Shown: positions 29,238 to 51,886, counted from the stretch's first letter. The stretch is 64,000 nucleotides of DNA from an uncultured Planctomycetales bacterium (GCA_964520655.1 CAZFNI010000001.1:122283-186282); one strand, 5' to 3'. A program made the numbers and translations. The notes: generated by a model not told the origin, from the sequence alone.

Positions 29238-32200
29238 ATGTTTCAACGATTATTCCACTATTTCGTTACAATGGCTTTTTTCACATCAGTAAGTTTACCT
29301 GTGTTTGCCCAACTTCCAGCGATCAATCTTCCGGAACCAGGCGCCGCTGTCACCGTAAGCGCTGTTTATCAGCCGGTGTTGATCAAAGGGGTCAAGGTTG
29401 ACTCCAAGCATCCATTACATCTGGAATTTATTGTCGATCCTAACGGTCTTTCTATTCAAGACAAATCTTTACGAGCCCAAACCCTGCGTTCTGTCAGGTA
29501 TTTTTTAGCTGCGCTTACTGTCCCCAATGATCAATTATGGGTCAATCTTTCGCCGTATGAGAAACAACGCATTATCCCGGATGGTCTTTCCGCCACTGAA
29601 ATGGGGAGGGATCTGCTGGCACAGGATTATCTGCTTAAGCAGTTGACCGCGACATTATTGAGCCCAACGGCGTCGCCAGGTAAAGAATTCTGGGAACGTG
29701 TTTATCGTCAGGGCAGCCACAGCAAACAGGGAGATCCCGTCCGTATTAATGCTTTCCATAAAGTTTGGATCGTTCCGGATCTTGCAGAGATTAGGGAACA
29801 TAACGGGGTCGCGGTCATTGCGAAAAGCCGTTTAAAGGTCATGCTGGAAGAGGATTATCTGGCAGTAAAAAAGAATGCTAGAACGAACGTTACTGAGGGG
29901 AAAGACCGTGCGTCAACTGAATTCATGCGTGCTGTCATCCTCCCTGAACTGGAACGGGAGGTCAATGAAGGAGCGAATTTTAGTATTGTCCGCCAAGTCA
30001 ATGATGCGCTCTTATTAGCGGCATGGTTCAAGCAAAGGGTCAGACAGGGCGTCCTGGCCTCTGTCTACACAGACCGCAACAAGATCGATGGTATTGACCT
30101 TCAGGATAAAACAGCCAAAGAAAAGATCTATACTCGTTATTTGAAGGCATTTAAAAAGGGCGTTTATAATCAGATCAGGGAGGATGTTGACCCATTGACC
30201 CATCTGAAGATGCCGCGTAAATATTTTTCTGGAGGATATGATGGGACGCATCCATTATTCGTTGTCCAGCCGGCTTCAGAACTTTCCATGATAGAGGCTG
30301 CTGGTGGTGCTCGAGCACTGCTTGCGCCTGTTGATCTAATGGTCATGGCTGATCGGGCTCAAGTTTCCCACGTCACGGCCCAGGAGCGCCTGCAGGAGAT
30401 TAGGCATGACGGGTACGCTGGTTTTCCTGTGGTTGTTGGTGATCAAGACCTTCCGTCTGGAATGACTTATGCATTAAGTTTTTATGATGCCACGGCCGGG
30501 GAAAAGAATAATCCTCTACGGGCTCTGATCAAGGCGGGGAAATTACGCGCTGGGCCGGATTTTAAGTTATTGATCGATGGGGTTCAGGACGGGGATGGTA
30601 TCCTGGTGTCAACCGACAGTGAGGTAGAAGTGGATCGGGTGCTGGTCAAGATACTAAGCGGTGATCAACAAGCGGCTGCATTTGATGCCTGGAAAAAGAA
30701 AGCCCGCAGCGCCGCCATTAAACCATTGGCCATCCATACTTCCAGCATGATCGCCCGCCCAACTGAAGTGCTGTATCGATATGGTATTCTTAAGTTGTTG
30801 ATGTCAAAAGATACGGTTTCCATGAAAGAGATCATCGATCATGTTCGTTCCCTGGTTGTTGATGGAACAATCATTCGAAATAATACACCTAATACCCAGT
30901 ATATTTTTGCTGTCCTGCGTGCATATGCCTCGCTGGGTTGGTTGACCTTTGCGGGAGAGTCGGCCAGTGAAGAGATGGTGTTCTCTTTGACAGAGCGTGG
31001 TCAACAGGCGTTGACTGCTGCAAAGAGCTATGCGGCAGTTGCTGATGCTATCCCAGAGTTTGACAAGATCGTTGACCATTTGTTCAACCGTTCATCGGTG
31101 CTGCTTTTGCCTGCTGGCGCCGCTTCATTGCGATCCATGGCTCTAAGTTCTCAACAGGGGTGGGGGTTGCCGGATAATATGGACGAAGAGGTTCGCCATT
31201 TGGTCCGCGGGCAATTGGACGGTTATCTGATCACCAATCTTGCCCTGGCGTTGCATATGGAAGGTGTATTTCGTTTGATCAATGCTGATCTTGACCTGGA
31301 CATGGATGCTATTGTGCGTTCGAGGAAAATTAGCGGGAATACAGATGAACTTAAGGCGGCGCTGGATATTCTAGCCAATGCTGGATTCCTGCGTGAGTAT
31401 GGGGCAGGACGGTACCATGTGACCTCGGAAGGGGTTGTTGCGTTCGACAGGGTCTTGTCATACGGGGTCCCCGTATCTTACAGGCCAAGTTATGACCTGG
31501 CGGAACGTTTTTTGTTCGGAGACGCAAAGCAGATCCCGCGCATGGATGATGAAGGGCATGAATTGCTTGTCTATCGCTACTTGAACGTCCTTGGTTCCGG
31601 TGCCTCGCATGCTACTTATTTTAAGCAAGTTGACAAGATGGTTGTCCAGATGATCCAGCAGCGTTTTAACAGCGGGGACATTCCTGAGCCAGAAGCATTG
31701 ACAACCCTGGCGCCTTTTGTATTGTCATTCGCTGATACCGGCTCCGGTGACGGGAAGTTTTTGGCGCACATTTATCATGTTATTGTGAAGCAAACGCGTT
31801 ACGGCGAGCTGATGCGGGCATATCCACATCTTTATAAGATCGATATGGTGGGGGTGGATTATAACGGTAAATCAAGAGAGGCCACCAGCGCGACACTATC
31901 AGCAGAACGGATCGAACATTCAGTCATTTTCGGGGACATCAATGAGCCTGCTGATATTGTGCGTGACGTGAACAAAGAGCTTGCCAGGAAAAACCAGGGG
32001 TCGCGTCTGTTGGTGATCCATACCCGGACATTCCTGGATCACAATCGTCCCTGGACAGGGATTAAAAATGTGGAACAGGCAAAAGCGCGCGTGTCTTCGT
32101 CAACAGGGACTTATGGCTGGCGCGGTGAGGCGATCCCCAATAATGTCGTCGAGCAGAATCTGTATGAACACTTCAAGTCTTGGGCGGACGCATTAAGTTC

Positions 32201-32681
32201 AGCTGGTCAGAAGGACTTGATCGTGATCGAACTGCACACGGTGCCTCCTGCGATAGCGGCTGTGAATATTGGCCGCACGCTGGATGTTCCTTATTTCTTG
32301 TCGCATGCCTTCTCAGATCAGCTCATCATTGAGTTCCCGGTTTATGATGCCAGGGTCAAGGAGGCTGGATTTGTCCGGCACCCGGATGCTTCGTTCCACA
32401 AACGGTTTCCTGAAGGGGATCTGACCACGGTATCGGTCGATTACTGGATGCTGCCGGACGTTGTTGTGCCTCCCGCCAAAGCAGGCGGGGAGAGTGATAT
32501 GGCCTCTGCGGCGGATGTCGGCGGTATCAACCTTGATCCTCGTTTGGGGCTGCTACGCATTGACACCGGCAAAGAACCTGTGACGCCAGGAGAAACACGG
32601 CCGCTGCCGATCTCTGATATGGATATCAAAGGTTTATACCCCGTACTGATCAAGATCATTCCTTTAAGAAATGAGCAATGA
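29238..32681 (+). CDS. exported paralog 1: shared ~330-aa N-terminal module (ends PRKYFSGG) fused to a C-terminal class I SAM-dependent O-methyltransferase-like domain
   Basis: Signal peptide MAFFTSVSLPVFA. N-module blocks LWVNLSPYE, GRDLLAQDYLLKQLTATL, NAFHKVWIV and LKVMLEEDYLA. MTase motif I FADTGSGDG, acidic MVGVD, FGDINEP (like GGDMF of OMTs) and LLVIHTRTFLDHNRPW (like ILHDW). Confidence 0.6.
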   Translation: MFQRLFHYFVTMAFFTSVSLPVFAQLPAINLPEPGAAVTVSAVYQPVLIKGVKVDSKHPLHLEFIVDPNGLSIQDKSLRAQTLRSVRYFLAALTVPNDQLWVNLSPYEKQRIIPDGLSATEMGRDLLAQDYLLKQLTATLLSPTASPGKEFWERVYRQGSHSKQGDPVRINAFHKVWIVPDLAEIREHNGVAVIAKSRLKVMLEEDYLAVKKNARTNVTEGKDRASTEFMRAVILPELEREVNEGANFSIVRQVNDALLLAAWFKQRVRQGVLASVYTDRNKIDGIDLQDKTAKEKIYTRYLKAFKKGVYNQIREDVDPLTHLKMPRKYFSGGYDGTHPLFVVQPASELSMIEAAGGARALLAPVDLMVMADRAQVSHVTAQERLQEIRHDGYAGFPVVVGDQDLPSGMTYALSFYDATAGEKNNPLRALIKAGKLRAGPDFKLLIDGVQDGDGILVSTDSEVEVDRVLVKILSGDQQAAAFDAWKKKARSAAIKPLAIHTSSMIARPTEVLYRYGILKLLMSKDTVSMKEIIDHVRSLVVDGTIIRNNTPNTQYIFAVLRAYASLGWLTFAGESASEEMVFSLTERGQQALTAAKSYAAVADAIPEFDKIVDHLFNRSSVLLLPAGAASLRSMALSSQQGWGLPDNMDEEVRHLVRGQLDGYLITNLALALHMEGVFRLINADLDLDMDAIVRSRKISGNTDELKAALDILANAGFLREYGAGRYHVTSEGVVAFDRVLSYGVPVSYRPSYDLAERFLFGDAKQIPRMDDEGHELLVYRYLNVLGSGASHATYFKQVDKMVVQMIQQRFNSGDIPEPEALTTLAPFVLSFADTGSGDGKFLAHIYHVIVKQTRYGELMRAYPHLYKIDMVGVDYNGKSREATSATLSAERIEHSVIFGDINEPADIVRDVNKELARKNQGSRLLVIHTRTFLDHNRPWTGIKNVEQAKARVSSSTGTYGWRGEAIPNNVVEQNLYEHFKSWADALSSAGQKDLIVIELHTVPPAIAAVNIGRTLDVPYFLSHAFSDQLIIEFPVYDARVKEAGFVRHPDASFHKRFPEGDLTTVSVDYWMLPDVVVPPAKAGGESDMASAADVGGINLDPRLGLLRIDTGKEPVTPGETRPLPISDMDIKGLYPVLIKIIPLRNEQ

Positions 32682-32687
32682 ACCGTG

Positions 32688-35600
32688 ATGGAAAACCATC
32701 GAAAATCTCTACATGTAATTTTATCTCTGGTCGTATTTATCAGCGGTTTTTTATCGTCTTTGCCTGAAAACTCTTGGGCAAAACATTCATCCGATCTCTC
32801 CATTAATCTGCCCCCTGCGGGAACAATGGTGACATTAAGCCCGCAATATGAGCCCATTACCATCAAGGGCCTGACAGTAGTCAAGAATGATCCTTTTCGC
32901 TTCGACTTTATTATGACTACAGGTGATGATAATAAATTACAAGGTGAAGCCCTGAAGCTGGAGGGAGAGAAACTGATCCGTTACTTTCTTGCCTCTTTAG
33001 CTGTTCCTGAGCAAGACCTGTGGGTTAATCTTTCGCCATATGAAGGCAGCAGGGTCGTTCCTCCTGCTCTTGGAGATACAGAGCTCGGCCGTGACATGCT
33101 CGCGCAGGATTACATTTTAAAACAATTGACCGCGTCGTTGATCTATCCGGAAAAAGAGTTGGGTAAGAAATTCTGGGACAAGGTGTATGCCCAAATGCAG
33201 GCTCAGTACGGCAAGACCGTCAATATTCCGGTCAATACGTTCAATAAAGTTTGGATCATGGCGGATCAAGCGGAAGTGTTTGAGAAGGATCAGACTGTGA
33301 TGGTGACCAAAAGCCGCTTGAAAGTCATGTTGGAGGAGGATTATTTGGCAGCGACTCGTCATGAAGCATCGGGTCCTGCCTGGGCAGCATCTGTTTCGTC
33401 CTCGCACCACCCATCCCCCGGTGGGGTAGCAAACCTAAAATCTACGTTTCCCCTGGTGCTGCGGTCAAAACAGAGTGTGACCTTTGGGAACACCCGGTAT
33501 GAGGGTGCTGCCCAGTCACCCGATGCCGGCAAGACGGATACTCAAGAAGTGATCCGGCAGATCATCCTGCCTGAGATTGAAAAAGAAGTCAACGAAGGCA
33601 AGAATTTTGCGTCATTGCGGCAGATCTTTAATGCGATCATTCTGGCAAAATGGTTTAAAGAGAATTTAAGAGATTCTATTATTAGTCAGATCTATGGGGA
33701 TAAAAGTAAGGTTAAAGGAATTGAAGTGCAAGACAAAGAGATTGCTCAAAAGATCTATGAGCAGTATGTGAGGGCGTATAAAAAAGGTGTCTTTAATTAC
33801 ATCAAGGTCGAAAAAGGGGATGAGCGTTTGTCATCTGTGCCAAGAAAGTATTTCTCTGGTGGTGTTGTGGGGCGCGTTACTATCACAAGGATTTCGGAAA
33901 TAGACGCAGGAACTGCAAGCAGTCTAAAAGACCATGCCATGGTGTTTTCAACTGTTTTGAATCTGGCCTCGGGGGTTAACCCGCCGGCATATAAGATTGT
34001 ACCGATGGTCTCAGATAAGGCAGATATGGCAGGTTTATGGAAAGATCTCAATGATCCTGCAAAAGTTCAGATAAGAATGGATCAGCACAGGATAAATTTT
34101 GTGACAAGGCACGGCACATTGTCTTTTGTAGGGGAGTATTTCAAAGACAAGCCCGATGCTTTACAGAAGATTCGTTATGCCAAACAGGTCTATTTAAGTG
34201 TGTTATCGTTTCGTGATATGTCAGAGATCGAAGCTGTAATACCGGCATTGAGCGTAATTGAAAAGAGGGCGGTATTATCATGGATCGACAGTAAATTCAC
34301 CTCCGCAGGAACGCCTGTCTCAGATAAATTAGGCAGGATCCGTGACATTATTTATGGAAATGAGGAGGATATGGCCATGACTGCCGGTGCGTTTATCACG
34401 GCATTTACAGGTAGGAATGGTTCAGGGGACAGGACCATCATGATCAATGTGTTAAATGAGCTATCAAAGCCGCCATTTGTCCGTGTTCCTAAGACAATAT
34501 TGGGGGAGTATGATATTTATCCTGTGAATGATTATGTTTTAATGAGGGTTAGTAAAGATGCGCAAAAGGGAAAAATGAATTGTGTTTTTGAGGTGGACCA
34601 AGGTGAGATCGGTAGTATTGAAATGGTTGTTGATCAGTCATGGTATGAGGCGCATTCTTTCGCGGATATGATCATGTTGATGAAAGAATTGGCGCAGCAT
34701 TATCTCAGTGATCTGGCCCTGGTGATGTCCGGTTATGTCGGTGTTCGTGCTGATGATATTAGGGTGGTGGGGAATGTTTATTTCTCAAATTTGCAGAATG
34801 ATTGGGACGATGGCGTAGAAATAATCAAGGATCTGCAAATGCTGGGATGGTTTATGGAACAAGGGGCCGTACCCAAATTTGCATTTGACCGGAGAAAAAC
34901 ACGTGTCGATATTGATTATGGAGAGGGTTTGCCTGTTCTTACTTTTGAGTCCAGGGAGGTTAATGGGAAAAAGGTTTTGGATAAGGTTATGTATAAAAAG
35001 GCGGGAGATGATGTCCCGGTGCTGATGGTTCTTGTTGGCCGGGATGGGGGCAAGCTGCCTTGGGTTAAAAAGAGCGTAATGAACGCCTTGGCAGAATTCA
35101 GGAGATCGCTCATTTTGTATATGCTCAAGAGATATCCAGAGCAGAGCCGCGTTATCCTGCACTTGATGTCGTCCAAAGATAGGGAGTCTTTGGAATCAAC
35201 CAACAGTCATTTATTAGGTGACTATGGCTATGCGCTGTACAAAGTTGAAGAGGATTATATGCGACTGCCTATAGCATCAACGATCACTGCGGGAACAGAA
35301 CATCATCCTCCTGCCAGAATATTAACTTTTCCTGGGGTATATTCTCCTGATTATGTAAGAGCCGGTTTGGAAGTAGCGTCTTATTTAGCTCACCCCAATG
35401 CTATAAGATATTCAAAGACGGATCCAGAGTTTATTTATCCTCCTGCCGGTTTGAGCTTGTATGCGGGGTATTTTTCAAGAATAAGCAAGGCGCAGAAGAT
35501 TATTCTAGAGGAGATCGAGAGAGCCTTTAGACAGGAGGGGCTTGTGCTGTATTCAAGGCCGATCGACCATTTTGGCCTTGAGCGGGAACGCAGAGAGGGG

Positions 35601-36263
35601 CTGCATATTGGTGAAGGGGGGGTGAATATATATTTTACGGCTGATCAGGAAAATGTTGCTTATCTTGATCCGCTGCGTCATCAGATCATTAGATCATTAT
35701 GGTTAGCCTTATATGGATTAGATCGAGATGAACAAAGGCTGCAGCAGCAAGAACATGATCGGAAAATGGCTGCTTTTATCAAGTCGTTGTTTAACGAGGG
35801 TGAAACAAATGCCTATCTTTTTCAACCTGTTAATGAAGAAGGCTATATTATTCTAATGAAAGAAGGACGAGAGATCGGACAGGTTGCTATTTTACCGTCA
35901 GGACAGGGAGGTATTCAGGTTGTTATTCAAAGATTTATTCCAACAATGGAGATATTTCAGTATGTTTTGCCGCAAAAGGACATTCAAGGACTGACATGGT
36001 CGGATATTTTGATCGATGTGCTCGATATTCTGGAACAAAACGAGCGAGGCGATCGGGACCAAGGAATGCTGTCGAATACTGGGGGTATTGATCTGAGAGC
36101 TCAAAATGCACCTCTTTCTGTTATTACTCAAGGTGCAGGAGCCGTGATGCGGATCGATCGGTCTATTATTGATCAGATCGAAAGACAAGGCATAGAAGGT
36201 CTTATTCCTGTGGTTCTTAAGATATCCCCATTAGAAAGTACGCGTATTCTCTTTAAACAGTAA
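32688..36263 (+). CDS. exported paralog 2: same N-terminal module (with a ~55-aa low-complexity insertion) fused to an unassigned ~800-aa C-terminal region
   Basis: Signal peptide ending in SWA. Blocks LWVNLSPYEGSRVVPPALGDTELGRDMLAQDYILKQLTASLIYPEKELGKKFWDKVYA, VNTFNKVWIMAD and PRKYFSGG. The start follows the paralog-1 stop by 6 nt (GTG 32685 / ATG 32688). Confidence 0.6.
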   Translation: MENHRKSLHVILSLVVFISGFLSSLPENSWAKHSSDLSINLPPAGTMVTLSPQYEPITIKGLTVVKNDPFRFDFIMTTGDDNKLQGEALKLEGEKLIRYFLASLAVPEQDLWVNLSPYEGSRVVPPALGDTELGRDMLAQDYILKQLTASLIYPEKELGKKFWDKVYAQMQAQYGKTVNIPVNTFNKVWIMADQAEVFEKDQTVMVTKSRLKVMLEEDYLAATRHEASGPAWAASVSSSHHPSPGGVANLKSTFPLVLRSKQSVTFGNTRYEGAAQSPDAGKTDTQEVIRQIILPEIEKEVNEGKNFASLRQIFNAIILAKWFKENLRDSIISQIYGDKSKVKGIEVQDKEIAQKIYEQYVRAYKKGVFNYIKVEKGDERLSSVPRKYFSGGVVGRVTITRISEIDAGTASSLKDHAMVFSTVLNLASGVNPPAYKIVPMVSDKADMAGLWKDLNDPAKVQIRMDQHRINFVTRHGTLSFVGEYFKDKPDALQKIRYAKQVYLSVLSFRDMSEIEAVIPALSVIEKRAVLSWIDSKFTSAGTPVSDKLGRIRDIIYGNEEDMAMTAGAFITAFTGRNGSGDRTIMINVLNELSKPPFVRVPKTILGEYDIYPVNDYVLMRVSKDAQKGKMNCVFEVDQGEIGSIEMVVDQSWYEAHSFADMIMLMKELAQHYLSDLALVMSGYVGVRADDIRVVGNVYFSNLQNDWDDGVEIIKDLQMLGWFMEQGAVPKFAFDRRKTRVDIDYGEGLPVLTFESREVNGKKVLDKVMYKKAGDDVPVLMVLVGRDGGKLPWVKKSVMNALAEFRRSLILYMLKRYPEQSRVILHLMSSKDRESLESTNSHLLGDYGYALYKVEEDYMRLPIASTITAGTEHHPPARILTFPGVYSPDYVRAGLEVASYLAHPNAIRYSKTDPEFIYPPAGLSLYAGYFSRISKAQKIILEEIERAFRQEGLVLYSRPIDHFGLERERREGLHIGEGGVNIYFTADQENVAYLDPLRHQIIRSLWLALYGLDRDEQRLQQQEHDRKMAAFIKSLFNEGETNAYLFQPVNEEGYIILMKEGREIGQVAILPSGQGGIQVVIQRFIPTMEIFQYVLPQKDIQGLTWSDILIDVLDILEQNERGDRDQGMLSNTGGIDLRAQNAPLSVITQGAGAVMRIDRSIIDQIERQGIEGLIPVVLKISPLESTRILFKQ

Positions 36264-39427: not shown

Positions 39428-41488
39428 ATGAAGGACATTAGTAGTATTTTTACGCCTAAACGTATCGCGGTCGTGGGAGCGTCCGTCGATGAAAAAAAGA
39501 TCGGACATCAAATTTTTAAGAATATCATTGAGGGTGGGTATACGGGGGAATTGATCCCGATCAATCCCACGGCTCCTGAAGTCTTGGGGAGGAAGGCTTA
39601 CCCGTCATTAGCTGCCGTTGCGCCGGGCGTTGATCTAGTCATCATTGCCATTCCCGCGCCGCATGTTATCAAGGCCATGGAAGAATGCGCGCAATATAAA
39701 GCCAAAGCCGTGGCGATCATCACTTCTGGTTTTGGGGAAGTTGGCAAGATCGCAGAGGAACAGCGTTTAAGGAAGATCGCTGACGATAACAATATCGCTT
39801 TGCTGGGACCGAATATTTTTGGGCTGGCCTACGGGCCTTCAAAGCTCAATGCCAGTTTTGGTCCTCCCGAATTGTATCCAGGACATATTGCTTTTATTAC
39901 CCAGAGCGGGGCCTTGGGGATAGGGCTGATGGGTTGGACGGTCATGAAGAAACTCGGATTGGGGGCGCTGGTCAATGTCGGCAATAAGGCTGATATCGAT
40001 GAAAAAGATCTGATCTCCTATTTTAATGAGGATCCTAATATTAAAGTCATTCTGATCTATATGGAAGGGATCAAGGATGGATTGAAGTTTTTGACCACCA
40101 AGATCAAGAAGCCGACGGTTGTCTTGAAAGTTGGCCGTTCTTCCAGAGGAGCAAAAGCCGCCGCATCTCATACTGGTTCTCTGTCAGGTTCAGATGCGAT
40201 TTATGACGGCGTTTTTAAGCAGTTGGGTGTTTTGCGGGCGGCCACCTTCACGGAAGCGTTCAGCTGGGCACGCGCATTATCGCAACCATTACCGACGGGC
40301 GATGATACGGTCATCATCACCAACGGCGGCGGTATTGGGGTCGCGACCACCGATGAATGCGAAACCCATAACATTAAGATCTTGGATGATCCTCAATGGC
40401 TGGAAGAAAAATTTCGTAGTACCATGCCGGATTATGGAAGCACGAAGAATCCGATCGATGTGACTGGTGGAGCGGGTGTTGAGGGGTATCGCAAAGCCAT
40501 GAAGATCGCTTTTGCGGAAGATCGCATCAAAGCGGTGATCGTGCTGTATTGTGAAACGGCTGTGACGGATCCCATGGAGATCGCGAAAGCTCTCCATGAG
40601 ACATTCGTGGAGGCCGGCTGCAATAAACCAGTTGTCATGTCGATGGTTGGCGGCGAACGCACCCGCGACGCGCTGGTCTACCTGAATAAGCATAATATAC
40701 CAGCATCAAGTCTCGTTGATGTGTCTGTATCCGCGCTAAAGATCATCTATACCTGGAGAGATATCAAGAATCGCGCTGTTTCCAATGCCGCGATCGAGCC
40801 GGCGCCTCAAGAGGTCCATGCGATCTTAAATGGGGTTAAAGCGCAGGGCAGAGATATTTTAATGGAGCACGAAGCACGTCAGGTCATGGAACTGTGCGGC
40901 GTTCCGACACCGCCCTGGGGTTTTGCCAAAAGTGCGGATGAAGCGGTGCGTTTGGCGGATTCCAAGAAACTTTATCCGCTGGCGATGAAGATCGCTTCAC
41001 CCGATATTGTTCATAAGACTGATGTGGGGGGAGTCGTCTTGAATATCCGTGATGCAGCGGGACTGCGCGAACAGTATGAGAATATGATGTCGCGCATCAA
41101 AAAAGCGGCGCCTTCAGCGAATTTGCTTGGCGTCAATTTGATCAAAATGGTCAGTGGTATTGAGTGTATTGTTGGGATGACAACGGATCCTCAGTTCGGA
41201 CCGGCGGTCATGTTCGGTTTGGGCGGTGTGTTCGTTGAAGCCTTAAAAGATGTGTCGTTTAGGGTGGCGCCTTTTGATGCGGCCGAAGCGGAACGCATGA
41301 TGGGTGACATCAAGTCCAAAAAGATCCTGGAAGGTTTCCGCGGGATGAAAGCCGATAAACCGTCGATCATCAAGACGCTGGTGGCAGTTCAGAAACTGGC
41401 ACCGCTTGTCAAAGAGATCGACATCAATCCATTGTTGACCAATCAAGACGGGTCCTATGCGGTTGATGCGAGGATCGTGTTGAAATAA
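39428..41488 (+). CDS. acetate-CoA ligase (ADP-forming), fused alpha/beta (CoA-binding + ATP-grasp)
   Basis: N-terminal CoA-binding domain (IAVVGASVDEKKIG). C-terminal ATP-grasp. 686 aa. Confidence 0.8.
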   Translation: MKDISSIFTPKRIAVVGASVDEKKIGHQIFKNIIEGGYTGELIPINPTAPEVLGRKAYPSLAAVAPGVDLVIIAIPAPHVIKAMEECAQYKAKAVAIITSGFGEVGKIAEEQRLRKIADDNNIALLGPNIFGLAYGPSKLNASFGPPELYPGHIAFITQSGALGIGLMGWTVMKKLGLGALVNVGNKADIDEKDLISYFNEDPNIKVILIYMEGIKDGLKFLTTKIKKPTVVLKVGRSSRGAKAAASHTGSLSGSDAIYDGVFKQLGVLRAATFTEAFSWARALSQPLPTGDDTVIITNGGGIGVATTDECETHNIKILDDPQWLEEKFRSTMPDYGSTKNPIDVTGGAGVEGYRKAMKIAFAEDRIKAVIVLYCETAVTDPMEIAKALHETFVEAGCNKPVVMSMVGGERTRDALVYLNKHNIPASSLVDVSVSALKIIYTWRDIKNRAVSNAAIEPAPQEVHAILNGVKAQGRDILMEHEARQVMELCGVPTPPWGFAKSADEAVRLADSKKLYPLAMKIASPDIVHKTDVGGVVLNIRDAAGLREQYENMMSRIKKAAPSANLLGVNLIKMVSGIECIVGMTTDPQFGPAVMFGLGGVFVEALKDVSFRVAPFDAAEAERMMGDIKSKKILEGFRGMKADKPSIIKTLVAVQKLAPLVKEIDINPLLTNQDGSYAVDARIVLK

Positions 41489-43590: not shown

Positions 43591-44338
43591 AAATCTATTC
43601 TTTGGGATCGCGGTATTATTGATGTGGTCAGTCTCGGGTTATGCTGCTGATTCCGACAAGGTCTCTGCTAAAAAAGGTTTCGCGCTGGTTGAATTGTTCG
43701 CGTCTGAAGGTTGTGGTAGCTGTCCGGCGGCGGATGCTCTCTTAACCAAGATCCTTAAAAAAGCTTCCAAAGAACATCTGCCTATTTATGCGTTAAGTTT
43801 TCATGTGGATTACTGGAATTATCTGGGTTGGAAAGACCGCTTTAGTTCACCCATTTATACTGAACGTCAGGGGCAGTATGTCTATGTGTTGAAAGCCAAG
43901 AATTCTTATACGCCGCAAATGGTCATCAACGGACAAAAGGAATGCGTCGGTTCTGATGAGAAAATGGTGTGGGGGTATATCAATGGATTCTTGGCTCAAC
44001 CGTTCTCGGTTAATGTCAAGCTTGATCTGACTCATGAGGGGATAAGCAAAGTTAAGGTTCGTTATCATGTTGATCCAGTTGTAGAGGGTGCCTCGATCAA
44101 CTTGGCGCTGGTTGAACGCGATGTCAAAAGTCATCCCAATGCCGGTGAGAATGACGGGCAGCTGCTGGAACAGGATAATGTTGTGGTGAACTTTCAGACC
44201 ATTGCGTTGGCTCAACCTCAAGGGGAAGTGTCCTTTGACTTGCCTTCCGGCATTGATCCTTACAAATTCTCTGTGATCGCGTTTGTTCAAAAAATGGATG
44301 ACCTGAAAATTCTGACTGCCAATAGTGTGGACATATAA
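43568..44338 (+). CDS. exported DUF1223-family thioredoxin-like protein (CxxC)
   Basis: Signal peptide. [17 protein letters not shown] is typical of DUF1223. Confidence 0.55.
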
Positions 44339-45956
44339 AATGAAAATACTGATCCGTATTGCTGTTGTACTCTTGGGTATAGGGTTTATCCTTATCCCGC
44401 TGGCGCTTTATGTGTTAATCCCAATGCAGGGCTCGAAAATTTTAAAGACACCTGTTAAAGTCCGTTCGGTGTACTTTAATCCTCTGACGCTGGATCTAAA
44501 GATCAACGGGCTTGCCATCCTGGACTCAAAACAACAGCCAGTTGTTGGGTTTCGTCAATTGGATGTGGATGTGAGTTTGTTTGATTTAGTGAAAGGTAAA
44601 TATCGTGTCCAGAAAGTAGCTCTGGATGGGTTTAATCTCGCGGTGGTCATGCTCCCTGACGGGCATATTAATTTGCTGGATATCGTCAACAATGCCATGG
44701 CAACGCAGACTACGCAGGCAAAGCAAACAAAAAAGCCTGCTGCCGCGCCCGCACCATCAAGCGGCAAGCCGCAAGACATTCCTTTGGTCGTTGTGGATAA
44801 GATCATTGTTTCTGACGGGATGGTGACGTTCAAGGATCAAAGCATAACACCAAATTTTGCCACAAAACTTCACGGCATCAATGTCAACCTTAATGGTCTC
44901 TCAACGGATCCCACGGCCACGGCACACGTAGTTTTTAAGGCCAGACTGGATGAGAAGGGGGTTATTACTAACGAAGCTAGTATCAAGCCGTTGGCTGTGC
45001 CATTGTCGCTTGAAACTACCTTTGGTTTGAATTCGTACGCGTTGACCGTATTGTCCCCCTATGTCGGCAAGTACACTGGACGTGCGTTACAAGATGGAGG
45101 TTTTGATCTGCAGATGACCTATCGGATCAGCGACAATAAGCTTGCCGCCAGTCATAAGATATTGATCCAGCATTTCAAATTTGGGGAGAAAGTGGAGAGT
45201 AAAGACGCGCTGCATTTACCGTTTGGGCTGGCGATCGCGCTTTTGGAAGATCCTCAAGGAAAGATAAAGATCTCATTGCCGGTCAAGGGGGACATGAGTG
45301 ATCCAAAATTCGAATATTGGCATTTGGTGGGTCAGGTGGTGTCCAATTTCTTTACCAAACTTGTCACCAAGCCGTTCATGTTCTTAGCATCGTTAGTCAC
45401 GGGATCTGAGGAAAGTACGGATGAGTTGGCCAGCGTCAAGTTTACGCCGGGTCAGTTCGAGTTGACGATTCCCGAACAGGAGAAATTAAAAGTATTGTCG
45501 AAAAGCTTAATGGAACGCCCTAAGCTGCGCTTAAAGATCAATGGAAGTTTTGATCCTGATCTGGACTGGAAAGCCATTAAAGCGGAAATGTTCCATAAGG
45601 ATTATACGCAGCTGCGAGAAGATTCCAAAAGAGCCGACACGATGATCTATCGTCAGCTGTATCAGCGTCGTTTCGGTATCCGTGCTCTGTGGCAGTTGGC
45701 CAGGAAATATAAAAAGGCGATCGGGGAATATAATGACCAGGATTTTGATCAGGAAATGAAAAAGCAGCTGATCGAGAATGCGCCTGCGGATAAAGGGGCC
45801 TTGGATGTCCTTGGGGCGGGCCGTGCTCAGGTGGTCTTTAATTATCTTCAAAGCCAGGGTTTTGATCCTTCAAGGTTGGAAATGGGCCAAAGTCAACCGG
45901 TGATGGGAAGCATGGGGTTTGTGCCTTTAGAGTTCACTCTTACCGTTATCGAATAA
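44325..45956 (+). CDS. DUF748/AsmA-like protein with N-terminal TM anchor and a truncated OmpA-like C-terminus
   Basis: N-terminal TM helix. The C-terminal GAGRAQVVFNYLQSQGFDPSRLEMGQSQPV resembles the OmpA C-terminal motif. Confidence 0.5.
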   Translation: MWTYKMKILIRIAVVLLGIGFILIPLALYVLIPMQGSKILKTPVKVRSVYFNPLTLDLKINGLAILDSKQQPVVGFRQLDVDVSLFDLVKGKYRVQKVALDGFNLAVVMLPDGHINLLDIVNNAMATQTTQAKQTKKPAAAPAPSSGKPQDIPLVVVDKIIVSDGMVTFKDQSITPNFATKLHGINVNLNGLSTDPTATAHVVFKARLDEKGVITNEASIKPLAVPLSLETTFGLNSYALTVLSPYVGKYTGRALQDGGFDLQMTYRISDNKLAASHKILIQHFKFGEKVESKDALHLPFGLAIALLEDPQGKIKISLPVKGDMSDPKFEYWHLVGQVVSNFFTKLVTKPFMFLASLVTGSEESTDELASVKFTPGQFELTIPEQEKLKVLSKSLMERPKLRLKINGSFDPDLDWKAIKAEMFHKDYTQLREDSKRADTMIYRQLYQRRFGIRALWQLARKYKKAIGEYNDQDFDQEMKKQLIENAPADKGALDVLGAGRAQVVFNYLQSQGFDPSRLEMGQSQPVMGSMGFVPLEFTLTVIE

Positions 45957-46160: not shown

Positions 46161-47513
46161 ATGGCTGGTATTCTATTATTTTTATCCATTATTCTTATCC
46201 CGTCATTATCTTTTGCCGCTATCAGTTTGAATGTCACACCAGCGGACGGCAGCAGCAGCTTGAAACTTGAGCAAGCGTACCTGGGGTTGGACAACAAAAA
46301 AGACGTTCGTATCCGTGTCACAGCAACGGATGGTAAAAGGTATCAAGTTTTTGCGCGAGTTCTCGATCCTATAGTAAATGAAAAAGGCGAAAGCCTCGAT
46401 GTGCGATCCGTTTCTTTGGCAACGATGGCGAGTTCCAATACGTCAGGGACGCTTTATCTCCAGAATGAGAACCCATTGAGCATGGGGGAGCAGTTGATCT
46501 ACAGCTCTGGACAGAATGGGGAAAGCGACTCGTTTACCATCACGTATGCGTTATCGCCGCAAAATATCAGCAGCGGCGGCAATTATTCCGGCCGTCTGGT
46601 ATTTACAGCCAGGTCTTCTGATGGCGCGGACAGTCAGGCAATGCTGGTGATAAATATCCAGTCATTAAGTCATTGGAAGGCTTCGGTGGTTGGCGGTAAG
46701 ACATCAGACCGTATCATGGTCAATGATAGGGATGTGACGGAAAGAACAGCGGATTTTGTGAAGATCACTTTCTTTGGCAACGGCGGTCAGGATGTACGTA
46801 TATACCAGGAAGCGTCCGTTATACCGCAGAATGCCGAAGGGGCGGATCTGGGGCCGGACGGTTTGGTGTTCTACGCCGCGGGGCAAGGGGATGGGATCAA
46901 GGCGCAGAATGTTTCAGTATTAAGCCCAAATCGTACCTTGGTTTACCAAGGGCATGAGCCTCAAGCGGAGATGCTTTTGTATTATCAGTTGAATCCGGCG
47001 GTATTATCCCGACAAGTGCCAGGGATGTACGCGGGTAGATTAAAGTTTACGGTAGAATCGGAACAAGGAACGCAGGATTTTAATATTGATGTGCAGTGTC
47101 AGATTCAACCGGTATTCACACTCGATGTTTCCGTACCAGGCAGCGGGATCAGTTTTGATAATGTGATCGCCAATAATCCGGCTCAAGAGAGGGAAGTAAC
47201 GATCACGGTACACACCAATTTACACAAAGCGTACCAGGTCAGTCAGAATTTTCAGTCGTTGATGACCAATGAGAAAGGTCATCAGATCAGTAAAGAATAT
47301 TTCACTGTAAAAGTGGAATTGCCCCAGGGGGGCAGCGGCAGAACGAAATATCAGGATTTTCTGCCGGTAGAAACAGGAGAATACCCGATATTTGCATCAA
47401 ACAGTAAAGGTGATCCCGTAGTGTTCAAGGTTACCTATAAACTGCAAGGATATCAGGGGATGAGCGCGGGAAATTTTAATGCGCCTATCCAGTATTCTTT
47501 AAACCAAAACTAA
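46161..47513 (+). CDS. exported tandem SCPU (spore coat protein U / Csu-type) domain protein; putative pilus tip or minor subunit
   Basis: Signal peptide. Repeated C-terminal SCPU-like motifs GNYSGRLVFTA, GMYAGRLKFTVESE and SAGNFNAPIQYSL. Confidence 0.5.
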   Translation: MAGILLFLSIILIPSLSFAAISLNVTPADGSSSLKLEQAYLGLDNKKDVRIRVTATDGKRYQVFARVLDPIVNEKGESLDVRSVSLATMASSNTSGTLYLQNENPLSMGEQLIYSSGQNGESDSFTITYALSPQNISSGGNYSGRLVFTARSSDGADSQAMLVINIQSLSHWKASVVGGKTSDRIMVNDRDVTERTADFVKITFFGNGGQDVRIYQEASVIPQNAEGADLGPDGLVFYAAGQGDGIKAQNVSVLSPNRTLVYQGHEPQAEMLLYYQLNPAVLSRQVPGMYAGRLKFTVESEQGTQDFNIDVQCQIQPVFTLDVSVPGSGISFDNVIANNPAQEREVTITVHTNLHKAYQVSQNFQSLMTNEKGHQISKEYFTVKVELPQGGSGRTKYQDFLPVETGEYPIFASNSKGDPVVFKVTYKLQGYQGMSAGNFNAPIQYSLNQN

Positions 47514-47536
47514 CAAAATAACAAAGGGGGAGAGTA

Positions 47537-48145
47537 ATGAAGAGAGTCATCGGTTTATTTGTAGCAGGGGTTGTTTTACTGGCCCAGTCCGGTTATGCGG
47601 CAACAGTGTCATACACTGTGTCAGCGACCGTGCCAACGTCATCGGCTGTTTCGATTAACGCGTTTAGCGTTAACTCAACCAGTGGTGTTAGAACAGCGAT
47701 CACGGGGACAGCATTAAGTTTTGATCCGCTAATCTACCAGCCTTCATTAGGTATCTATTTACCGGATCATTATTTCGTCGTTGAATCAGGTTTGACTTCA
47801 GGTGCCGGCAACCAGGACATCACGGTTGTTTACACGGAAGGTACGAATCCAAACAATCCGGGTCATGGTTTAGGTTGGAAATCAGTGGCGACATTCAACA
47901 AGGTCACTGGTCCCACAACGGAAGTCACGTTGTCTGCCCATGGTAAGAAAATGCTCAAAGATCTGACCGCTGAACATATCACCGCGGCGGAGATCGGTAC
48001 GAACTTGTTGAGAATGTACGTGGGCGTTGTTACCAAAGATCCGGCCGCAGTTCCGTTGGATCCGGCAGCAAGCGAAGTTATCAGCAACGCGGATCGCCAA
48101 GGCGCCTATAACGGCACATTGGTTGTCACCGCGACAGTTGTCTAA
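47537..48145 (+). CDS. exported SCPU-domain pilin-like subunit (archaic chaperone-usher type)
   Basis: Signal peptide MKRVIGLFVAGVVLLAQSGYA. C-terminal GAYNGTLVVTATVV, the SCPU C-terminal motif. 202 aa. Confidence 0.5.
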   Translation: MKRVIGLFVAGVVLLAQSGYAATVSYTVSATVPTSSAVSINAFSVNSTSGVRTAITGTALSFDPLIYQPSLGIYLPDHYFVVESGLTSGAGNQDITVVYTEGTNPNNPGHGLGWKSVATFNKVTGPTTEVTLSAHGKKMLKDLTAEHITAAEIGTNLLRMYVGVVTKDPAAVPLDPAASEVISNADRQGAYNGTLVVTATVV

Positions 48146-48172
48146 GGAAATACGTAACATAAGGCAGATGCA

Positions 48173-48973
48173 TTGAATAAAACAGTTATTTTCTTAGTTT
48201 TGGTGTTGGCATGCTTTTCCGGTAAGACGGCAATGGCGCAGCTTTTTCTCGAAGAGGGGAAGATCGTCACAGCTGTCGAACCGGGAGAGCGTGTCAACAA
48301 ATCGATTTATATTTCCAATACTTCTGACAAGCCGATCAATGTCAGGGCGTATTGGCAGGACTTTATGTATCAGCCGCCCTATGACGGGGTTAAAGCGTTT
48401 GTGCCTGAGGGTACGACCAAATTATCCGCATCCAAGATGATGACGTTCTCCCCGTTGGTTTTCCAATTGCCTGCCTTCGGCAAGCAAAAGATAGAGTATT
48501 CTGTGAATGTGCCTTCAACCGCCAGGGGCGGCTATTATGGGGTTTTATTCTTTGAAAAAGCACCAGATCCTCTGCAGGCCAAGACGGGTTTAAGCATTGT
48601 CACCAGGGTCGGTGCTTTATTTTTCCTGGAAACTAAGAACAAGTCCAAGAAATCTGAAGTGGCGGATGTTGTTGTCGCTACAGATAAAATAACCGGTGTT
48701 TTCAAAAACCAGGGGGATGTGATCTTGATCCCCCGCATGACTTACAACGTTTTCGATAAGGAGGGATTGGTCGCCGACCGCGGTGAATTAAAGAAAATAT
48801 ATGTTCCCCCCGGCGCCTCCGCGAATTGGGAAATGGTCCTGCCTAAATTAAGCGCAGGAAAATTCTCTGTAGTACTAAACACGGATTTAGATGATGGGGA
48901 CGTGATCGTCACTGAGATCAGCATTGATGTGGATACCGCAGGTCATCTGAAGATTGAAAACGTCAAGAATTGA
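48173..48973 (+). CDS. periplasmic pilus chaperone-like protein (PapD/CsuC-like fold)
   Basis: Signal peptide. N-terminal beta-rich pattern KSIYISNTSDKPINVRAYWQ...PLVFQLPAFGKQKI resembles the PapD-like domain 1. Confidence 0.4.
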   Translation: MNKTVIFLVLVLACFSGKTAMAQLFLEEGKIVTAVEPGERVNKSIYISNTSDKPINVRAYWQDFMYQPPYDGVKAFVPEGTTKLSASKMMTFSPLVFQLPAFGKQKIEYSVNVPSTARGGYYGVLFFEKAPDPLQAKTGLSIVTRVGALFFLETKNKSKKSEVADVVVATDKITGVFKNQGDVILIPRMTYNVFDKEGLVADRGELKKIYVPPGASANWEMVLPKLSAGKFSVVLNTDLDDGDVIVTEISIDVDTAGHLKIENVKN

Positions 48974-51660
48974 AGAAGTCCTTCCAGCTGTTCTTCCTAA
49001 TTTTTTTCTGTTGTTCTTGTGCTAATCTCTCCTGGGCTGAGTCGTATACGCCTCAGTCTCAGACATACCATGATGCTTATGTCTATTTTTTAAAGAAAGC
49101 CAGGGCGGCAACTGACCCTTTGAAGATCCTTAGATACGGAAAATTAGCGCGTTTGTACGCAGCTTCTTCGTCTGAAATTGATGCCGCTGAGGCGCTATTA
49201 AAGCAGCAAAATACTCCCGTGTCACCGGTCACCTCTGCTGTGATCGTTGAACAGCCGGCAGCGAAAACGACTATTTCCAGTGGAATAAAAGCGCCATTAA
49301 CAGTGGAAAGTCAGCCGGTACGTTTGAAAGATATTTCTGATAAGCAGACCATAGAGATCCCATTTGGCCATAGTATTATCATTGAGCGGCAGGGGGTAAA
49401 GCGGTTCTTAGTCATCGATGAGGGGATCGTTGAGGTTAAACTTATCGAGCATGCTCAGGTGAAGATCACCGCTGTGAAGCGCGGCAGTACCTTTGTGCAT
49501 ATCTGGGATGAGAGCGGCCGCACCACCATTTACATCAAAACAAATTTTTTGCAGCAACCCTCTGAGACCCAGCAGAACCTAGCCCCTGTTTTAGTGGAAC
49601 ATAATCAGCCGTTTAAGTTCACCTATTCATCAGATTGGAGTGCTTATTATCAAGGCACTAAGCTGCCGCATTTAAGACGTCAGAATTTAAGTTTCTTACA
49701 GAATCTATCCATGGACGGGCCGACGCCTTATGGTGAGGTGGATTCATATGTGACATTTAAGGGGTTTGATAATCATCGCGATATTCAAAGCTATACACTG
49801 GGGGTTAGCCGTATTCCTGTGAAAGGGACAGATAATCTTAATCTGCGGCTGTTTGATGCTGCGCGGCATTTGTCTCCTTTAACACTGGCTGGAGCTCATT
49901 TACGGGGTTTATTCGCGGATGTGGATGTTCTGGATAAGAGTTTGCGCTTTTCTTATAGTCATGGGCAGGTGCGTCCTGCTTTTGGGTTTTTGGGATTTGG
50001 GACTTCTAATAAGATACATTCCTATGTGGATGCCGCAAAAGTAACATTGCTCCCTCACATGAAGAATGGGCAGTATTCGATCAATGTGGCAACAGGTTAT
50101 GGGGCGGATAGGGATCCGAGCGCCTCCAAGAGAGCATATTCTATTGAAGCCGAACAAAAGGTGGATAAAGTCACGCTAAATGGGGAGCTAGCTCGTAATG
50201 ATGATAAGCGCTCCGCGGTGACATCTGGGTTGCGGTATGATAATAACGGCTTTAGCACCAAATTAAATATGCGCGATATCAATAAGGATTATGCGACGGT
50301 CTTGAATCCGGCATCGGCTCAAGGGGAGATCGGGGCGGCCTGGTCGACAAATATCTATAATGAGAAGTTCGACGCGCAAACATTGATCGACGTGTACCGT
50401 AACCGGCTGTATTTTAATCCTAATGACCCAGAGGCTTTGAATATTGACTCCAGCGGCCATTTACATATGCCGATTAATTCTAAGATGTCGTCAGATGCGG
50501 GATTGTTCTACACGCATACGCCGGGAGAATTATCACCCCGGATGAATTTTGGCATAGACGATCGTTTATCTATTTCTATAGACACCTGGAACAAACGGCA
50601 TGGAACGGTTTATGTTGGCGGGGCGTATCAACGCAGCCGCTATTCCAATTCACCAGCGTCCGCCTTTGACCGGTTGACAGCGATCGTCGGCGCCTCTATG
50701 CCCCTGACAGAGAGATTATCCATTCATAGTAAATATGAATTTTCCTGGGTGGATGAACCGTTTACAGGAAATGGGTATAACCCGGCGGTATTTAATGCGG
50801 GGCTTAATTATTATCATCAACTGACGACGCGCCTGCGCGGTACCTGGGACATGAATTACCGCAGGGAACAGGGAGTTGGGGGGAGTAATAGTTTTCTCGC
50901 TGGTGAAGATAGCTTGGATGGGAGCATGGGCTTATCGTATAGCCCAGCAACAGATGTGAATATTTTTGCCGATTCGCGATTACGCCGTGTATGGCCTAAA
51001 TCGACTGATATAGCGGCCTACTATGCGTTGGATGTCCGGTTTGGATTGCGAATGATGTTTGGCGGAAAGGTGTATTTTGATCCGCAAGGCACCGTGCGCG
51101 GCAGCGTATTCGATGATGTGAATATGAACGGTGTCAGGGAACAGGGCGAGGCGGGTCTGCCGCATGTGAAGGTGAAGGTGGGCGACAAAGAAGTGACAAC
51201 AGATGAAAAGGGCTATTTTAGGAAGCCTTATCGTGCCAAAGCGGTGGTGGTGTCTCCTCAGGCGGATAGTATCCCGGCAGGGTATGTCTTATCGACTAAA
51301 GAATCATTGCGTGTGCCGATCGTTTTGGGTAGTGACTCTGAAGTCAATTTCGGATATAGTTCGCATTCATCCGTGTATGGTATTGTGTATGTGGATAAGA
51401 ATGCCAATGGCCAGCCGGATATGGGGGATCAATTCATTTCTAAAGTCAAGGTGACGCTGGATGGTCAGGATCAATACACAGATAATAACGGTGCGTATTA
51501 TTTCCGCAATGTGGCTGTTGGACGGCACCATGTGGCATTAGATCTGAATACGGTTTCTATCGAATTTGTGCCTGTGAAGAAAGTGAAAGATGATTTTGAG
51601 GTTGGCCGCGGTGCTTCCTATGTGATGCATTTCCCCATGAGGATCAAGGAACAACAATAG
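48970..51660 (+). CDS. large exported usher-like / outer-membrane protein: CpaC-type N-terminal domain, central beta-rich region, two C-terminal SdrD-B/Cna-B-like repeats
   Basis: Signal peptide. VIDEGIVEVKLIEHAQVKITAVKRGSTFVHIWDESG matches the pilus-formation N-terminal domain pattern. Central region is rich in alternating aromatic/small residues. C-terminal repeats VFDDVNMNGVREQGEAG...KGYF and YVDKNANGQPDMGD...GAYYF. Confidence 0.4.
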   Translation: MKKSFQLFFLIFFCCSCANLSWAESYTPQSQTYHDAYVYFLKKARAATDPLKILRYGKLARLYAASSSEIDAAEALLKQQNTPVSPVTSAVIVEQPAAKTTISSGIKAPLTVESQPVRLKDISDKQTIEIPFGHSIIIERQGVKRFLVIDEGIVEVKLIEHAQVKITAVKRGSTFVHIWDESGRTTIYIKTNFLQQPSETQQNLAPVLVEHNQPFKFTYSSDWSAYYQGTKLPHLRRQNLSFLQNLSMDGPTPYGEVDSYVTFKGFDNHRDIQSYTLGVSRIPVKGTDNLNLRLFDAARHLSPLTLAGAHLRGLFADVDVLDKSLRFSYSHGQVRPAFGFLGFGTSNKIHSYVDAAKVTLLPHMKNGQYSINVATGYGADRDPSASKRAYSIEAEQKVDKVTLNGELARNDDKRSAVTSGLRYDNNGFSTKLNMRDINKDYATVLNPASAQGEIGAAWSTNIYNEKFDAQTLIDVYRNRLYFNPNDPEALNIDSSGHLHMPINSKMSSDAGLFYTHTPGELSPRMNFGIDDRLSISIDTWNKRHGTVYVGGAYQRSRYSNSPASAFDRLTAIVGASMPLTERLSIHSKYEFSWVDEPFTGNGYNPAVFNAGLNYYHQLTTRLRGTWDMNYRREQGVGGSNSFLAGEDSLDGSMGLSYSPATDVNIFADSRLRRVWPKSTDIAAYYALDVRFGLRMMFGGKVYFDPQGTVRGSVFDDVNMNGVREQGEAGLPHVKVKVGDKEVTTDEKGYFRKPYRAKAVVVSPQADSIPAGYVLSTKESLRVPIVLGSDSEVNFGYSSHSSVYGIVYVDKNANGQPDMGDQFISKVKVTLDGQDQYTDNNGAYYFRNVAVGRHHVALDLNTVSIEFVPVKKVKDDFEVGRGASYVMHFPMRIKEQQ

Positions 51661-51886
51661 ACTGGATCTTAACGAGTTGGCCCATGCGAACCTCATGCTG
51701 GGCTGAGGTGATCTGTTCTTTTGAGGCTGCTGCAGGTTTGGCTTCCTCCATAACGTGGGGAGGAATGGTTAAACTGACAACGTAAGATTTTGTTTCGCTT
51801 TGAGCGGCAATAGAATTTGAGGCTGATATCAGAAGGGTGAGGATTAAGATGCTAAGACGACTTGCGTGGTGCATTGCGCTCTCCAT
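51644..51886 (-). CDS. small hypothetical exported protein
   Basis: 80 aa with a hydrophobic N-terminal segment. Weak support. Confidence 0.25.
   Translation of the reverse strand: MESAMHHASRLSILILTLLISASNSIAAQSETKSYVVSLTIPPHVMEEAKPAAASKEQITSAQHEVRMGQLVKIQSIVVP

Follow-up and report, generated by a model that had tools for sequence, protein, structure and literature searches.

The stretch of DNA considered here (the window) comprises 64,000 nucleotides of one strand from a record titled uncultured Planctomycetales bacterium (GCA_964520655.1 CAZFNI010000001.1:122283-186282). Between positions 46161 and 51660 it carries a run of genes coding for exported proteins, and the question raised by this locus is whether they build a pilus and, if so, of which kind. 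Chaperone-usher (CU) pili are products of a textbook, medically important assembly pathway which is defined by the PapD and Usher families. In the original prediction, made from the sequence alone, the locus was filed as an archaic CU pilus cluster of the SCPU/Csu type with a non-canonical usher-like protein of 896 aa. Predicted folds and gene architecture support the general part of that reading, a pilus or surface fibre of CU layout with an atypical outer-membrane component. The narrower filing under SCPU/Csu was borne out by none of the tests applied. We favour, with a probability of roughly 0.68, the explanation that the five genes make up a self-contained module for assembling a surface fibre, by a donor-strand mechanism of the CU type and from parts that lie outside the known CU sequence families.

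Gene layout and conservation of the module

The first four genes, A to D, lie closely packed in one operon, and a small gene, E, converges on its end. Their features, in window coordinates, are as follows:

A, 46161-47513, plus strand: exported three-domain protein of 450 aa, candidate tip or adhesin subunit
Domain d1 of A: 46218-46664
Domain d2 of A: 46665-47096
Domain d3 of A: 47097-47510
B, 47537-48145, plus strand: exported protein of 202 aa with the C-terminus GAYNGTLVVTATVV, candidate major polymerising subunit
C, 48173-48973, plus strand, TTG start: predicted periplasmic chaperone-like protein of 266 aa with two immunoglobulin (Ig) domains and a WxLIP/PapD-like fold
D, 48970-51660, plus strand, TTG start: predicted outer-membrane usher-like protein of 896 aa
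N-domain of D (PF13629): 49315-49545
Predicted barrel of D, ~26 strands: 49615-51063
Two C-terminal beta-sandwiches of D, SdrD_B type: 51082-51645
E, 51644-51886, minus strand: exported mini-protein of 80 aa, convergent with D, candidate cap, terminator or usher partner

A and B are separated by 23 nt and B and C by 27 nt, the stop codon of C and the start of D overlap in the 4-nt sequence TTGA, and E overlaps the 3' end of D by 17 nt on the opposite strand. Purine runs resembling Shine-Dalgarno sequences were found upstream of A, B and C, and a scan of promoters and terminators gave the same counts as shuffled sequence. The N-termini of A to D read as signal peptides, with a positive n-region, a hydrophobic core and an A-x-A-like site, and a signal peptide is likewise present in E. 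The four open reading frames (ORFs) of the original prediction were recovered at the positions and with the sizes claimed for them; the four-gene layout is real, but the conserved fifth gene on the minus strand had been overlooked. The module occurs once in the whole 64-kb window, and its neighbours are unrelated housekeeping genes (MsrB, DUF1223, DUF748/AsmA-like, RluA-type pseudouridine synthase, HI0933 flavoprotein, ArsR, and OEP with an RND pump). No ATPase was found inside the module by ORF and family scans or by a scan of related loci with hidden Markov models (HMMs) of the five families.

Homologs of B, C and D were found among metagenome-derived proteins only, and all those bearing a name belong to Candidatus Omnitrophota/Omnitrophica. 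In six loci fetched via D homologs of 25-48 % identity, the gene order was identical and the flanks were entirely different; the encoded proteins measured ~455 aa, ~205 aa (sometimes duplicated), ~266-303 aa and ~900-960 aa, and were followed by an opposite-strand ORF of 76-105 aa. A scan of the GTDB species representatives, queried with a 9-sequence alignment, added 32 loci, all from Omnitrophota-type metagenome-assembled genomes (MAGs). With the HMMs of the five families, A-B(-B)-C-D was recovered in this order wherever the DNA was present, and E kept its position and direction in 35 of the 37 close-family loci (E 1e-6 to 1e-32). The arrangement with a convergent E is now seen in ~37 loci of different MAGs with unrelated flanks. 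Such a layout is far from chance, and the preservation of gene order between unrelated flanks together with the recurrence of E indicates that the module is a genuine unit, maintained vertically, and E a genuine gene.

Four of the 32 related records (L009, L016, L022 and L040) carry the title uncultured Planctomycetales bacterium, and the rest are Omnitrophota; the four include the closest relative, which shows 59 % identity in D and lies on a 1.34-Mb contig. The title of these four is probably a placeholder taxonomic label used in third-party assemblies. Additional paralogs of B, one to three per locus, were observed upstream of A or between B and C (L005 5665-6982; L016 1119-2960; L013 1658-2275, minus strand; L034 1712-2515; L001 8444-9088; L036 4291-4887), and in L016 there is no B between A and C. 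Their presence suggests minor or variant subunits, or antigenic diversification.

At one locus the module is directly followed by a full cluster of the type IV pilus/T2SS-like kind with secretin, T2SSE, T2SSF, pilin and PilM (L003 13409-22706), and at another a T2SSE ATPase gene lies upstream of it (L006 5622-6983). Since this association is not kept across loci, it probably reflects a coincidental clustering of surface-structure genes. In the window, the gene directly upstream of the module (44325-45956) codes for a 543-aa DUF748/AsmA-like envelope protein with a faint OmpA-like C-terminus. It was ruled out as a part of the module because it does not stand beside it in other loci, and is probably unrelated.

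Subunits A and B

Protein A consists of three homologous domains of ~145 aa, d1 (residues 20-168), d2 (169-312) and d3 (313-450). In local hhalign comparisons the probability of homology was 98 % for d1 and d2 (E 3e-13), 98.9 % for d1 and d3 (3e-17) and 95 % for d2 and d3 (4e-8), and all three share the motif G-x-[YF]-x-[GA]-x-hydrophobic-x-hydrophobic. Past this motif d1 has 18 residues forming a turn and an extra amphipathic strand (...SQAMLVINIQS); d2 also has 18 residues past the motif (...QDFNIDVQCQIQ), and in d3 the chain stops 3 residues past the aligned region. Like d3, B stops early, 10 residues past the invariant G189-x-Y191-x-G193, and its C-terminal strand is the most conserved segment of the protein. 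The motif glycine stands at position -14 from the C-terminus in all 32 A sequences and in 34 of 39 B sequences. CU pilins classically carry such a glycine at -14, together with alternating hydrophobic residues, as their C-terminal signature.

By this internal comparison, the strongest evidence at the level of sequence, the C-terminal domain of A and by analogy B would appear to miss a final strand and to depend on one provided in trans. A would then resemble the two-domain tip adhesins of CU pili, being a multi-domain protein incomplete in its last domain only. From the truncation and the motifs, and from these only, we infer donor-strand complementation. A possible donor is the mature N-terminus of B, a conserved amphipathic strand followed by proline (consensus T-F-T-V-S-A-T-V-P), which might mimic the terminal strands of d1 and d2 in so far as it has the same common alternating hydrophobic pattern.

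Neither A, with its three domains also scanned singly, nor B matched any Pfam or NCBIfam family, including SCPU (PF05229) and the fimbrial families at E<=1. Likewise, SCPU or any other fimbrial family was matched by none of 38 B-family members, no Pfam domain was present in any of the 83 clusters of the B family, and single-sequence and profile searches of A and B against PDB sequences gave no match. The 450-aa protein, which had been proposed as a tandem-SCPU tip-like protein, is a tandem but not one of SCPU domains, and the assignment of the 202-aa protein as an SCPU pilin did not hold. Nor was a kinship of B with A-type domains detected: profile-profile comparison with A and with each A domain gave probabilities of <=2 %, and the short C-terminal motif alone could be aligned.

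Protein C has a chaperone-like fold

An AlphaFold2 (AF2) model of C (pLDDT 90.6) contains two Ig-like beta-sandwiches, at residues 24-154 and 161-265. Its sole poorly defined segment is a loop at residues 130-144, just before the strand at 145-154 (R-V-G-A-L-F-F-L-E-T). Among 33 orthologs, pairwise identity reaches its maximum in this strand (74 %) and its minimum in the preceding loop (28 %). A conserved strand next to a variable loop is the pattern expected of a chaperone that works through its G1 strand and keeps its F1-G1 loop flexible until a subunit binds.

In Foldseek comparisons, the lowest E-value (4e-13) was obtained with the WxLIP of E. faecium (9i25/9i1y), free and with long WxL bound, at template-modelling (TM) scores of 0.42-0.48. 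Next came more than 30 chains of CU chaperones at E 4e-10 to 3e-8, including CfaA, Caf1M, CupB2, YadV, FimC, SafB, EcpB, CsuC and DraB, and the best geometric fit was with CfaA (TM 0.54 normalised to the query and 0.65-0.68 to the target, root-mean-square deviation ~5 A). At the level of sequence, C alone gave no significant Pfam or NCBIfam match. PapD_N (PF00345) and PapD_C (PF02753) matched none of 37 C-family members at E<=1, and the sole specific recurring Pfam signal was WxLIP_PGBD (PF06030, DUF916), found in 15 of the 37 with a best E of 9e-6; the C of the window scores 13.6 bits on this profile against a cut-off of 27.3 bits. A generic Fn3-like domain was also recurrent in the family, and the profile search against the PDB gave a single, marginal hit to EcpB over the F1-G1 region (E 0.19). 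The PapD-like chaperone proposed for this gene is thus retained as a fold of the model, with CU chaperones among its matches, and lost as a sequence family; on the sequence signal, C is filed nearer to the Gram-positive WxLIP family DUF916 than to PapD. On reading its end (...HLKIENVKN), no C-terminal transmembrane helix was found in C. Taken together, C is predicted to be a soluble exported two-Ig-domain protein with the fold shared by pilus chaperones and WxLIP.

The NCBI copy of C (P0021, 100 % identical) has 246 aa and begins at an internal methionine, so that the signal peptide is lost. With the TTG start at 48173 the signal peptide aligns with those of all homologs, and another gene caller also gives 266 aa (P0317). 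The NCBI record probably has a mis-called start.

Protein D has an usher-like architecture

D matches PF13629 (T2SS-T3SS_pil_N) at residues 125-185 (E 9e-9) and SdrD_B twice in its C-terminal 190 residues (E 5e-13), which bears out both domain assignments of the original prediction. PF13629 and SdrD_B, as well as domains of the CarboxypepD_reg type, were found in 19 of 19 D-family members. At E<=1, none of the 19 matched Usher (PF00577, with PapC_N/PapC_C), so that by profile D is no PapC-type usher. The N-domain is shared with the Tad/Flp secretins RcpA and CpaC, and homologs of D are named 'pilus assembly protein N-terminal domain-containing protein' at NCBI. D was nevertheless rejected as a secretin: Secretin (PF00263) was absent from all 19 members, and the rest of D is, unlike a secretin, modelled as a barrel of the monomeric type. 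In searches against PDB sequences D matched SdrD B-domains, and RcpA appeared only in the profile search, at E 0.28.

The AF2 model, built from a 19-sequence alignment (mean pLDDT 82), shows in this order a signal peptide, three to four TPR-like helices (residues 34-78), a disordered linker (81-114), a small beta domain corresponding to PF13629 (116-192), a barrel (216-698) and two beta-sandwiches (~705-892). A barrel had been guessed at residues ~200-700, and D was confidently modelled as one, not as a non-barrel soluble protein. By DSSP count the barrel has 26 strands, joined by turns of 2-6 residues on one side and loops of 4-16 residues on the other, the usual pattern of outer-membrane proteins with both termini in the periplasm. 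In the structures of PapC and FimD, the usher plug sits between strands 6 and 7. The modelled D barrel contains no insertion the size of a plug; the turn between its strands 6 and 7 has 4 residues and its longest loop 16. Several D relatives show weak TPR matches at the N-terminus (residues 30-80 in the window protein) and two of the 19 a faint match to SlipAM, both of which probably reflect an N-terminal helical repeat.

When the model was compared with the PDB by Foldseek, the top 12 matches were all full-length FimD or PapC (E 6e-20 to 7e-9, 716-822 aligned columns), and generic barrels such as MOMP, Cir, FrpB and OprC started at ~4e-8. We conclude that D is predicted to be an outer-membrane barrel with the order of parts of an usher, an N-domain, a barrel and two C-terminal beta-sandwiches. 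On this model an usher-like design is established, and homology to ushers is not. When idle, the wide plug-less pore might be closed by the N-domain (PF13629), by the TPR-like helices, by one of the C-terminal domains or by E.

Mini-protein E shares a strand motif with B

The 32 E sequences compared follow a common plan: a signal peptide; the motif [ST]-[YF]-x-[ILV]-S-[VL]-T-[IV]-P; a variable linker of 20-35 residues; and a C-terminal Q-E-Q-x-x-V-R-x4-V-x-V-R-S-I-V-x-L. A position-specific scoring matrix was made from the N-terminal 12 residues of B and calibrated on a background of 1,275 unrelated ORFs from the same loci. Its best match in E was the mature N-terminus in 29 of 32 sequences (median z 3.7 versus shuffles), and 72 % of the E proteins scored above the 99th percentile of the background; in addition, the E HMM matches B at E 2e-5. 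By these comparisons, B and E have an N-terminal amphipathic strand motif in common. With ~55 mature residues, E is too small for an Ig domain and its strand must therefore pair elsewhere. The reading that we prefer is that E may be a cap or terminator, donating a strand without offering a groove; equally open is that it may be a partner or gate of the plug-less D barrel.

Distant relatives of the module

An exhaustive search with the profile of the C family retrieved 5,958 representative clusters at E<=1e-3 and 1,495 at E<=1e-10; some of the weak matches may be generic Ig domains. In longer C relatives (~367-370 aa) both WxLIP domains (PF06030 and PF11797) were matched below the cut-off. Two distant C-like proteins, one of 340 aa from an Omnitrophota MAG and one of 568 aa from an unclassified 'bacterium', are encoded immediately upstream of D-like proteins of 888 and 995 aa with PF13629 and SdrD_B. 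Instead of a three-domain A, paired exported proteins of 158-188 aa precede these genes (L007 8494-13943, L008 8665-14940). The recurrence of the chaperone-like and usher-like pair in such distant loci indicates that it is the conserved core of the system.

The small subunits of these variant loci are interrelated (87-99.9 %) and weakly akin to d1 of A; the alignment stops at the F-strand motif, and the proteins end 13-15 residues past the motif glycine. One small subunit of L007 reaches E 0.021 with SCPU (15.6 bits against a cut-off of 22.4 bits), and another from the variant loci E 0.014 with DUF4402, also below threshold. A faint, unproven superfamily thread may run from A-type domains to SCPU-like pilins. 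In L008, a convergent ORF of 115 aa follows D and does not match the E profile.

A proposed assembly mechanism and its alternatives

After Sec export, periplasmic C would bind A and B, its G1-like strand 145-154, past the flexible loop, filling the groove left by the missing strand of the subunit, and the complexes would dock at the periplasmic N-domain of D. A would enter the pore of D first and would hence be found at the tip. Each incoming B would then swap the chaperone strand on the previous subunit for its own N-terminal strand, and the chain would grow through D without ATP. Finally E, with a donor-like strand and no Ig body, would cap the last B and stop or anchor the fibre, unless it acts on D as partner or gate of the barrel. 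In this scheme we infer polymerisation, the role of E and the gating of the pore. The biological role is likely the adhesion of these ultra-small bacteria to surfaces or host cells.

With the CU pili of the Fim/Pap, CFA/I-ECP and Csu/CupE kinds the module shares a set of exported subunits, a two-Ig-domain periplasmic protein and a large outer-membrane barrel in the absence of an ATPase. It also shares, as far as models and sequence reading go, the domain order of D with FimD/PapC as its best PDB matches, the fold of C (CfaA, Caf1M, FimC, EcpB and CsuC), and subunits which appear to end at an F-strand-like motif without a terminal strand. In contrast, the PapD_N/C, Usher, Fimbrial and SCPU profiles match no member, the predicted barrel of D has ~26 instead of 24 strands and no plug, the N-domain is PF13629 after TPR-like helices, the C-terminal domains are of the SdrD_B/CarboxypepD_reg type, C does not appear to keep the anchor residues of chaperones (in a marginal alignment), and there is an extra conserved mini-protein. 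Moreover, the host phylum Omnitrophota lies outside the range reported for CU systems, which comprises Proteobacteria, Cyanobacteria and Deinococcus-Thermus (PMC4654587).

Several observations weigh against assembly of the CU type. The likeness of the modelled D to ushers is architectural, and its barrel differs from theirs in strand number and in having no plug. Barrel-only usher structures matched it at E ~2e-8 to 1e-6, level with other barrels, although their target-normalised TM scores (0.42-0.47) were the highest among barrel matches; the usher preference of D therefore comes from the whole architecture. B has no detectable relation to A-type domains or to known pilins, the matrix of its N-terminal strand found no specific match to the terminal strands of d1 and d2, and its N-terminal motif could be B's own first strand. 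Finally, archaic and alternative CU chaperones have an invariant arginine in strand F1, Arg89 of CsuC/EcpB, which anchors the subunit carboxylate (PMC4654587); the marginal alignment with EcpB places Gly123, an invariant residue of C, at this position. Any anchoring of a C-terminal carboxylate by C would have to use other residues, for which K74, R145 and R203, invariant basic residues elsewhere in the protein, are candidates.

The filing in the original prediction would place the module within the archaic (sigma, Csu/CupE, SCPU-pilin) CU systems as a true though far diverged member, homologous to CsuA/B, CsuC and CsuD beyond profile detection, which we consider unlikely. The C-terminus of B (G-x-Y-x-G-T-L-x-V-T-A-T-V) resembles those of SCPU proteins and CsuA/B, CsuC is among the fold matches of C (E ~1.5e-8), the variant-locus subunit that resembles SCPU does so over nearly the full profile and, as the one resembling DUF4402, aligns weakly to d1, and no kind of CU system is spread more widely across the phylogeny than the archaic one (PMC4654587). 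However, the SCPU, PapD_N/C and Usher profiles were empty in all family members, with no SCPU in A either, the PDB profile searches gave no match to CsuA/B, CsuC or CsuE, and the best matches of C were WxLIP and CfaA, not CsuC. The glycine in place of Arg89, marginal as that alignment is, and the plug-less barrel of ~26 strands with PF13629 in place of the usher N-terminal domain do not fit this filing either.

Distinctly unlikely is that the module is a diderm counterpart of the WxL/WxLIP (DUF916-DUF3324) complexes of Firmicutes, in which C would stay bound to A and B, as WxLIP does to WxL proteins, and D would be a mere export or anchoring pore, without a polymer. Both the lowest Foldseek E-value of C and the recurring WxLIP_PGBD signal, which is sub-threshold, point that way, as do the longer relatives with both WxLIP domains. 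The order of a large and a small subunit followed by an Ig-tandem protein is also the layout of WxL clusters, with one large and one small partner protein each, and WxLIP is predicted to insert a strand of a beta-hairpin into its WxL partner (PMC10599100). On the other hand, WxLIP has a C-terminal membrane anchor (PMC10599100) that C lacks, its TM scores with C stay below those of CfaA, and no WxL domain was detected in A, B or 38 B relatives. The module has an outer-membrane barrel and a diderm host; the usher-like D with two C-terminal domains suggests a platform for translocation and assembly, and the duplication of B and the donor-like strand of E are easier to understand under polymerisation. 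In a reading without any fibre, D would be a large channel for solutes or proteins (porin, TonB-dependent transporter (TBDT) or Slam-like) and A, B and C unrelated Ig-fold proteins of the periplasm or surface, for instance binding or matrix proteins. Generic barrels (TBDTs, MOMP, OprC) do match D at E ~1e-7, CarboxypepD_reg-type domains, present in every D, are known on TBDTs, and SlipAM and TPR signals occur in a few relatives; yet a gap of twelve orders in E-value favours full-length ushers, D lacks a TonB box and a plug domain, a lipobox is absent from A and B, and such a reading, which we regard as highly improbable, agrees poorly with the chaperone-like fold of C, the truncation at the end of A and the strict conservation of all five genes together. 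As specific systems, a Slam-like translocon or a TBDT was rejected on these grounds, the matches being faint only, type V pili because there are no lipoprotein pilins, and curli and Fap systems because no components matched.

Significance for donor-strand fibres and for Omnitrophota

CU logic and folds are shared by the donor-strand module proposed here; new are its sequence families, the predicted plug-less barrel with a secretin-type N-domain, the WxLIP-like chaperone, the mini-subunit and the phylum. We see it as conceivable, and for the present doubtful, that it represents a fourth lineage of donor-strand fibres, with a plug-less usher analogue of ~26 strands bearing a secretin-type N-domain, a diderm chaperone related to WxLIP, new pilin families and a dedicated terminating or anchoring mini-subunit, E, made of hardly anything but a donor strand and a C-terminal strand. 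If this were true, the chaperone would link the WxL surface complexes evolutionarily to CU pili. As the C-like superfamily is large, with its 1,495 clusters at E<=1e-10, the class could be widespread in uncultured diderms.

If the module proves structurally equivalent to CU systems, the donor-strand/usher solution would reach further across bacteria than sequence searches indicate. It would also offer a natural experiment on which features of ushers are dispensable (the plug, 24 strands, the type of N-terminal domain) and point to a possible tie with the WxL/WxLIP systems of Firmicutes, which are poorly understood. Omnitrophota are ultra-small bacteria suspected to be host-dependent or predatory. 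Among the papers searched we found none linking CU systems with this phylum, and the surveys of its genomes consulted cover type IVa and Tad pili and giant adhesins and never mention ushers or fimbriae. Since these surveys treat only such structures, the module is a concrete candidate for an attachment organelle of Omnitrophota.

Other features of the window

Two adjacent genes, at 29238-32681 and 32685-36263, code for large exported proteins of 1147 and 1192 aa. The C-terminal half of the former is an AprA-like module of winged helix and methyltransferase (PF23525, 6e-63), preceded by ~650 residues without a family match, and the latter has no Pfam or NCBIfam match. At 39428-41488 lies the gene for an ADP-forming acyl-CoA synthetase of 686 aa, whose match to TIGR02717 (acetate--CoA ligase alpha), with E 1.5e-143, scores under the curated cut-off; this type of enzyme has been reported in some Omnitrophia as a reversible acetyl-CoA synthetase (PMC10066038). 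Over the whole window (1-64000) the GC skew is positive in all 2-kb bins and the cumulative skew rises monotonically, and nearly all large ORFs are on the plus strand. The window appears to lie wholly inside one replichore with a strong gene-strand bias.

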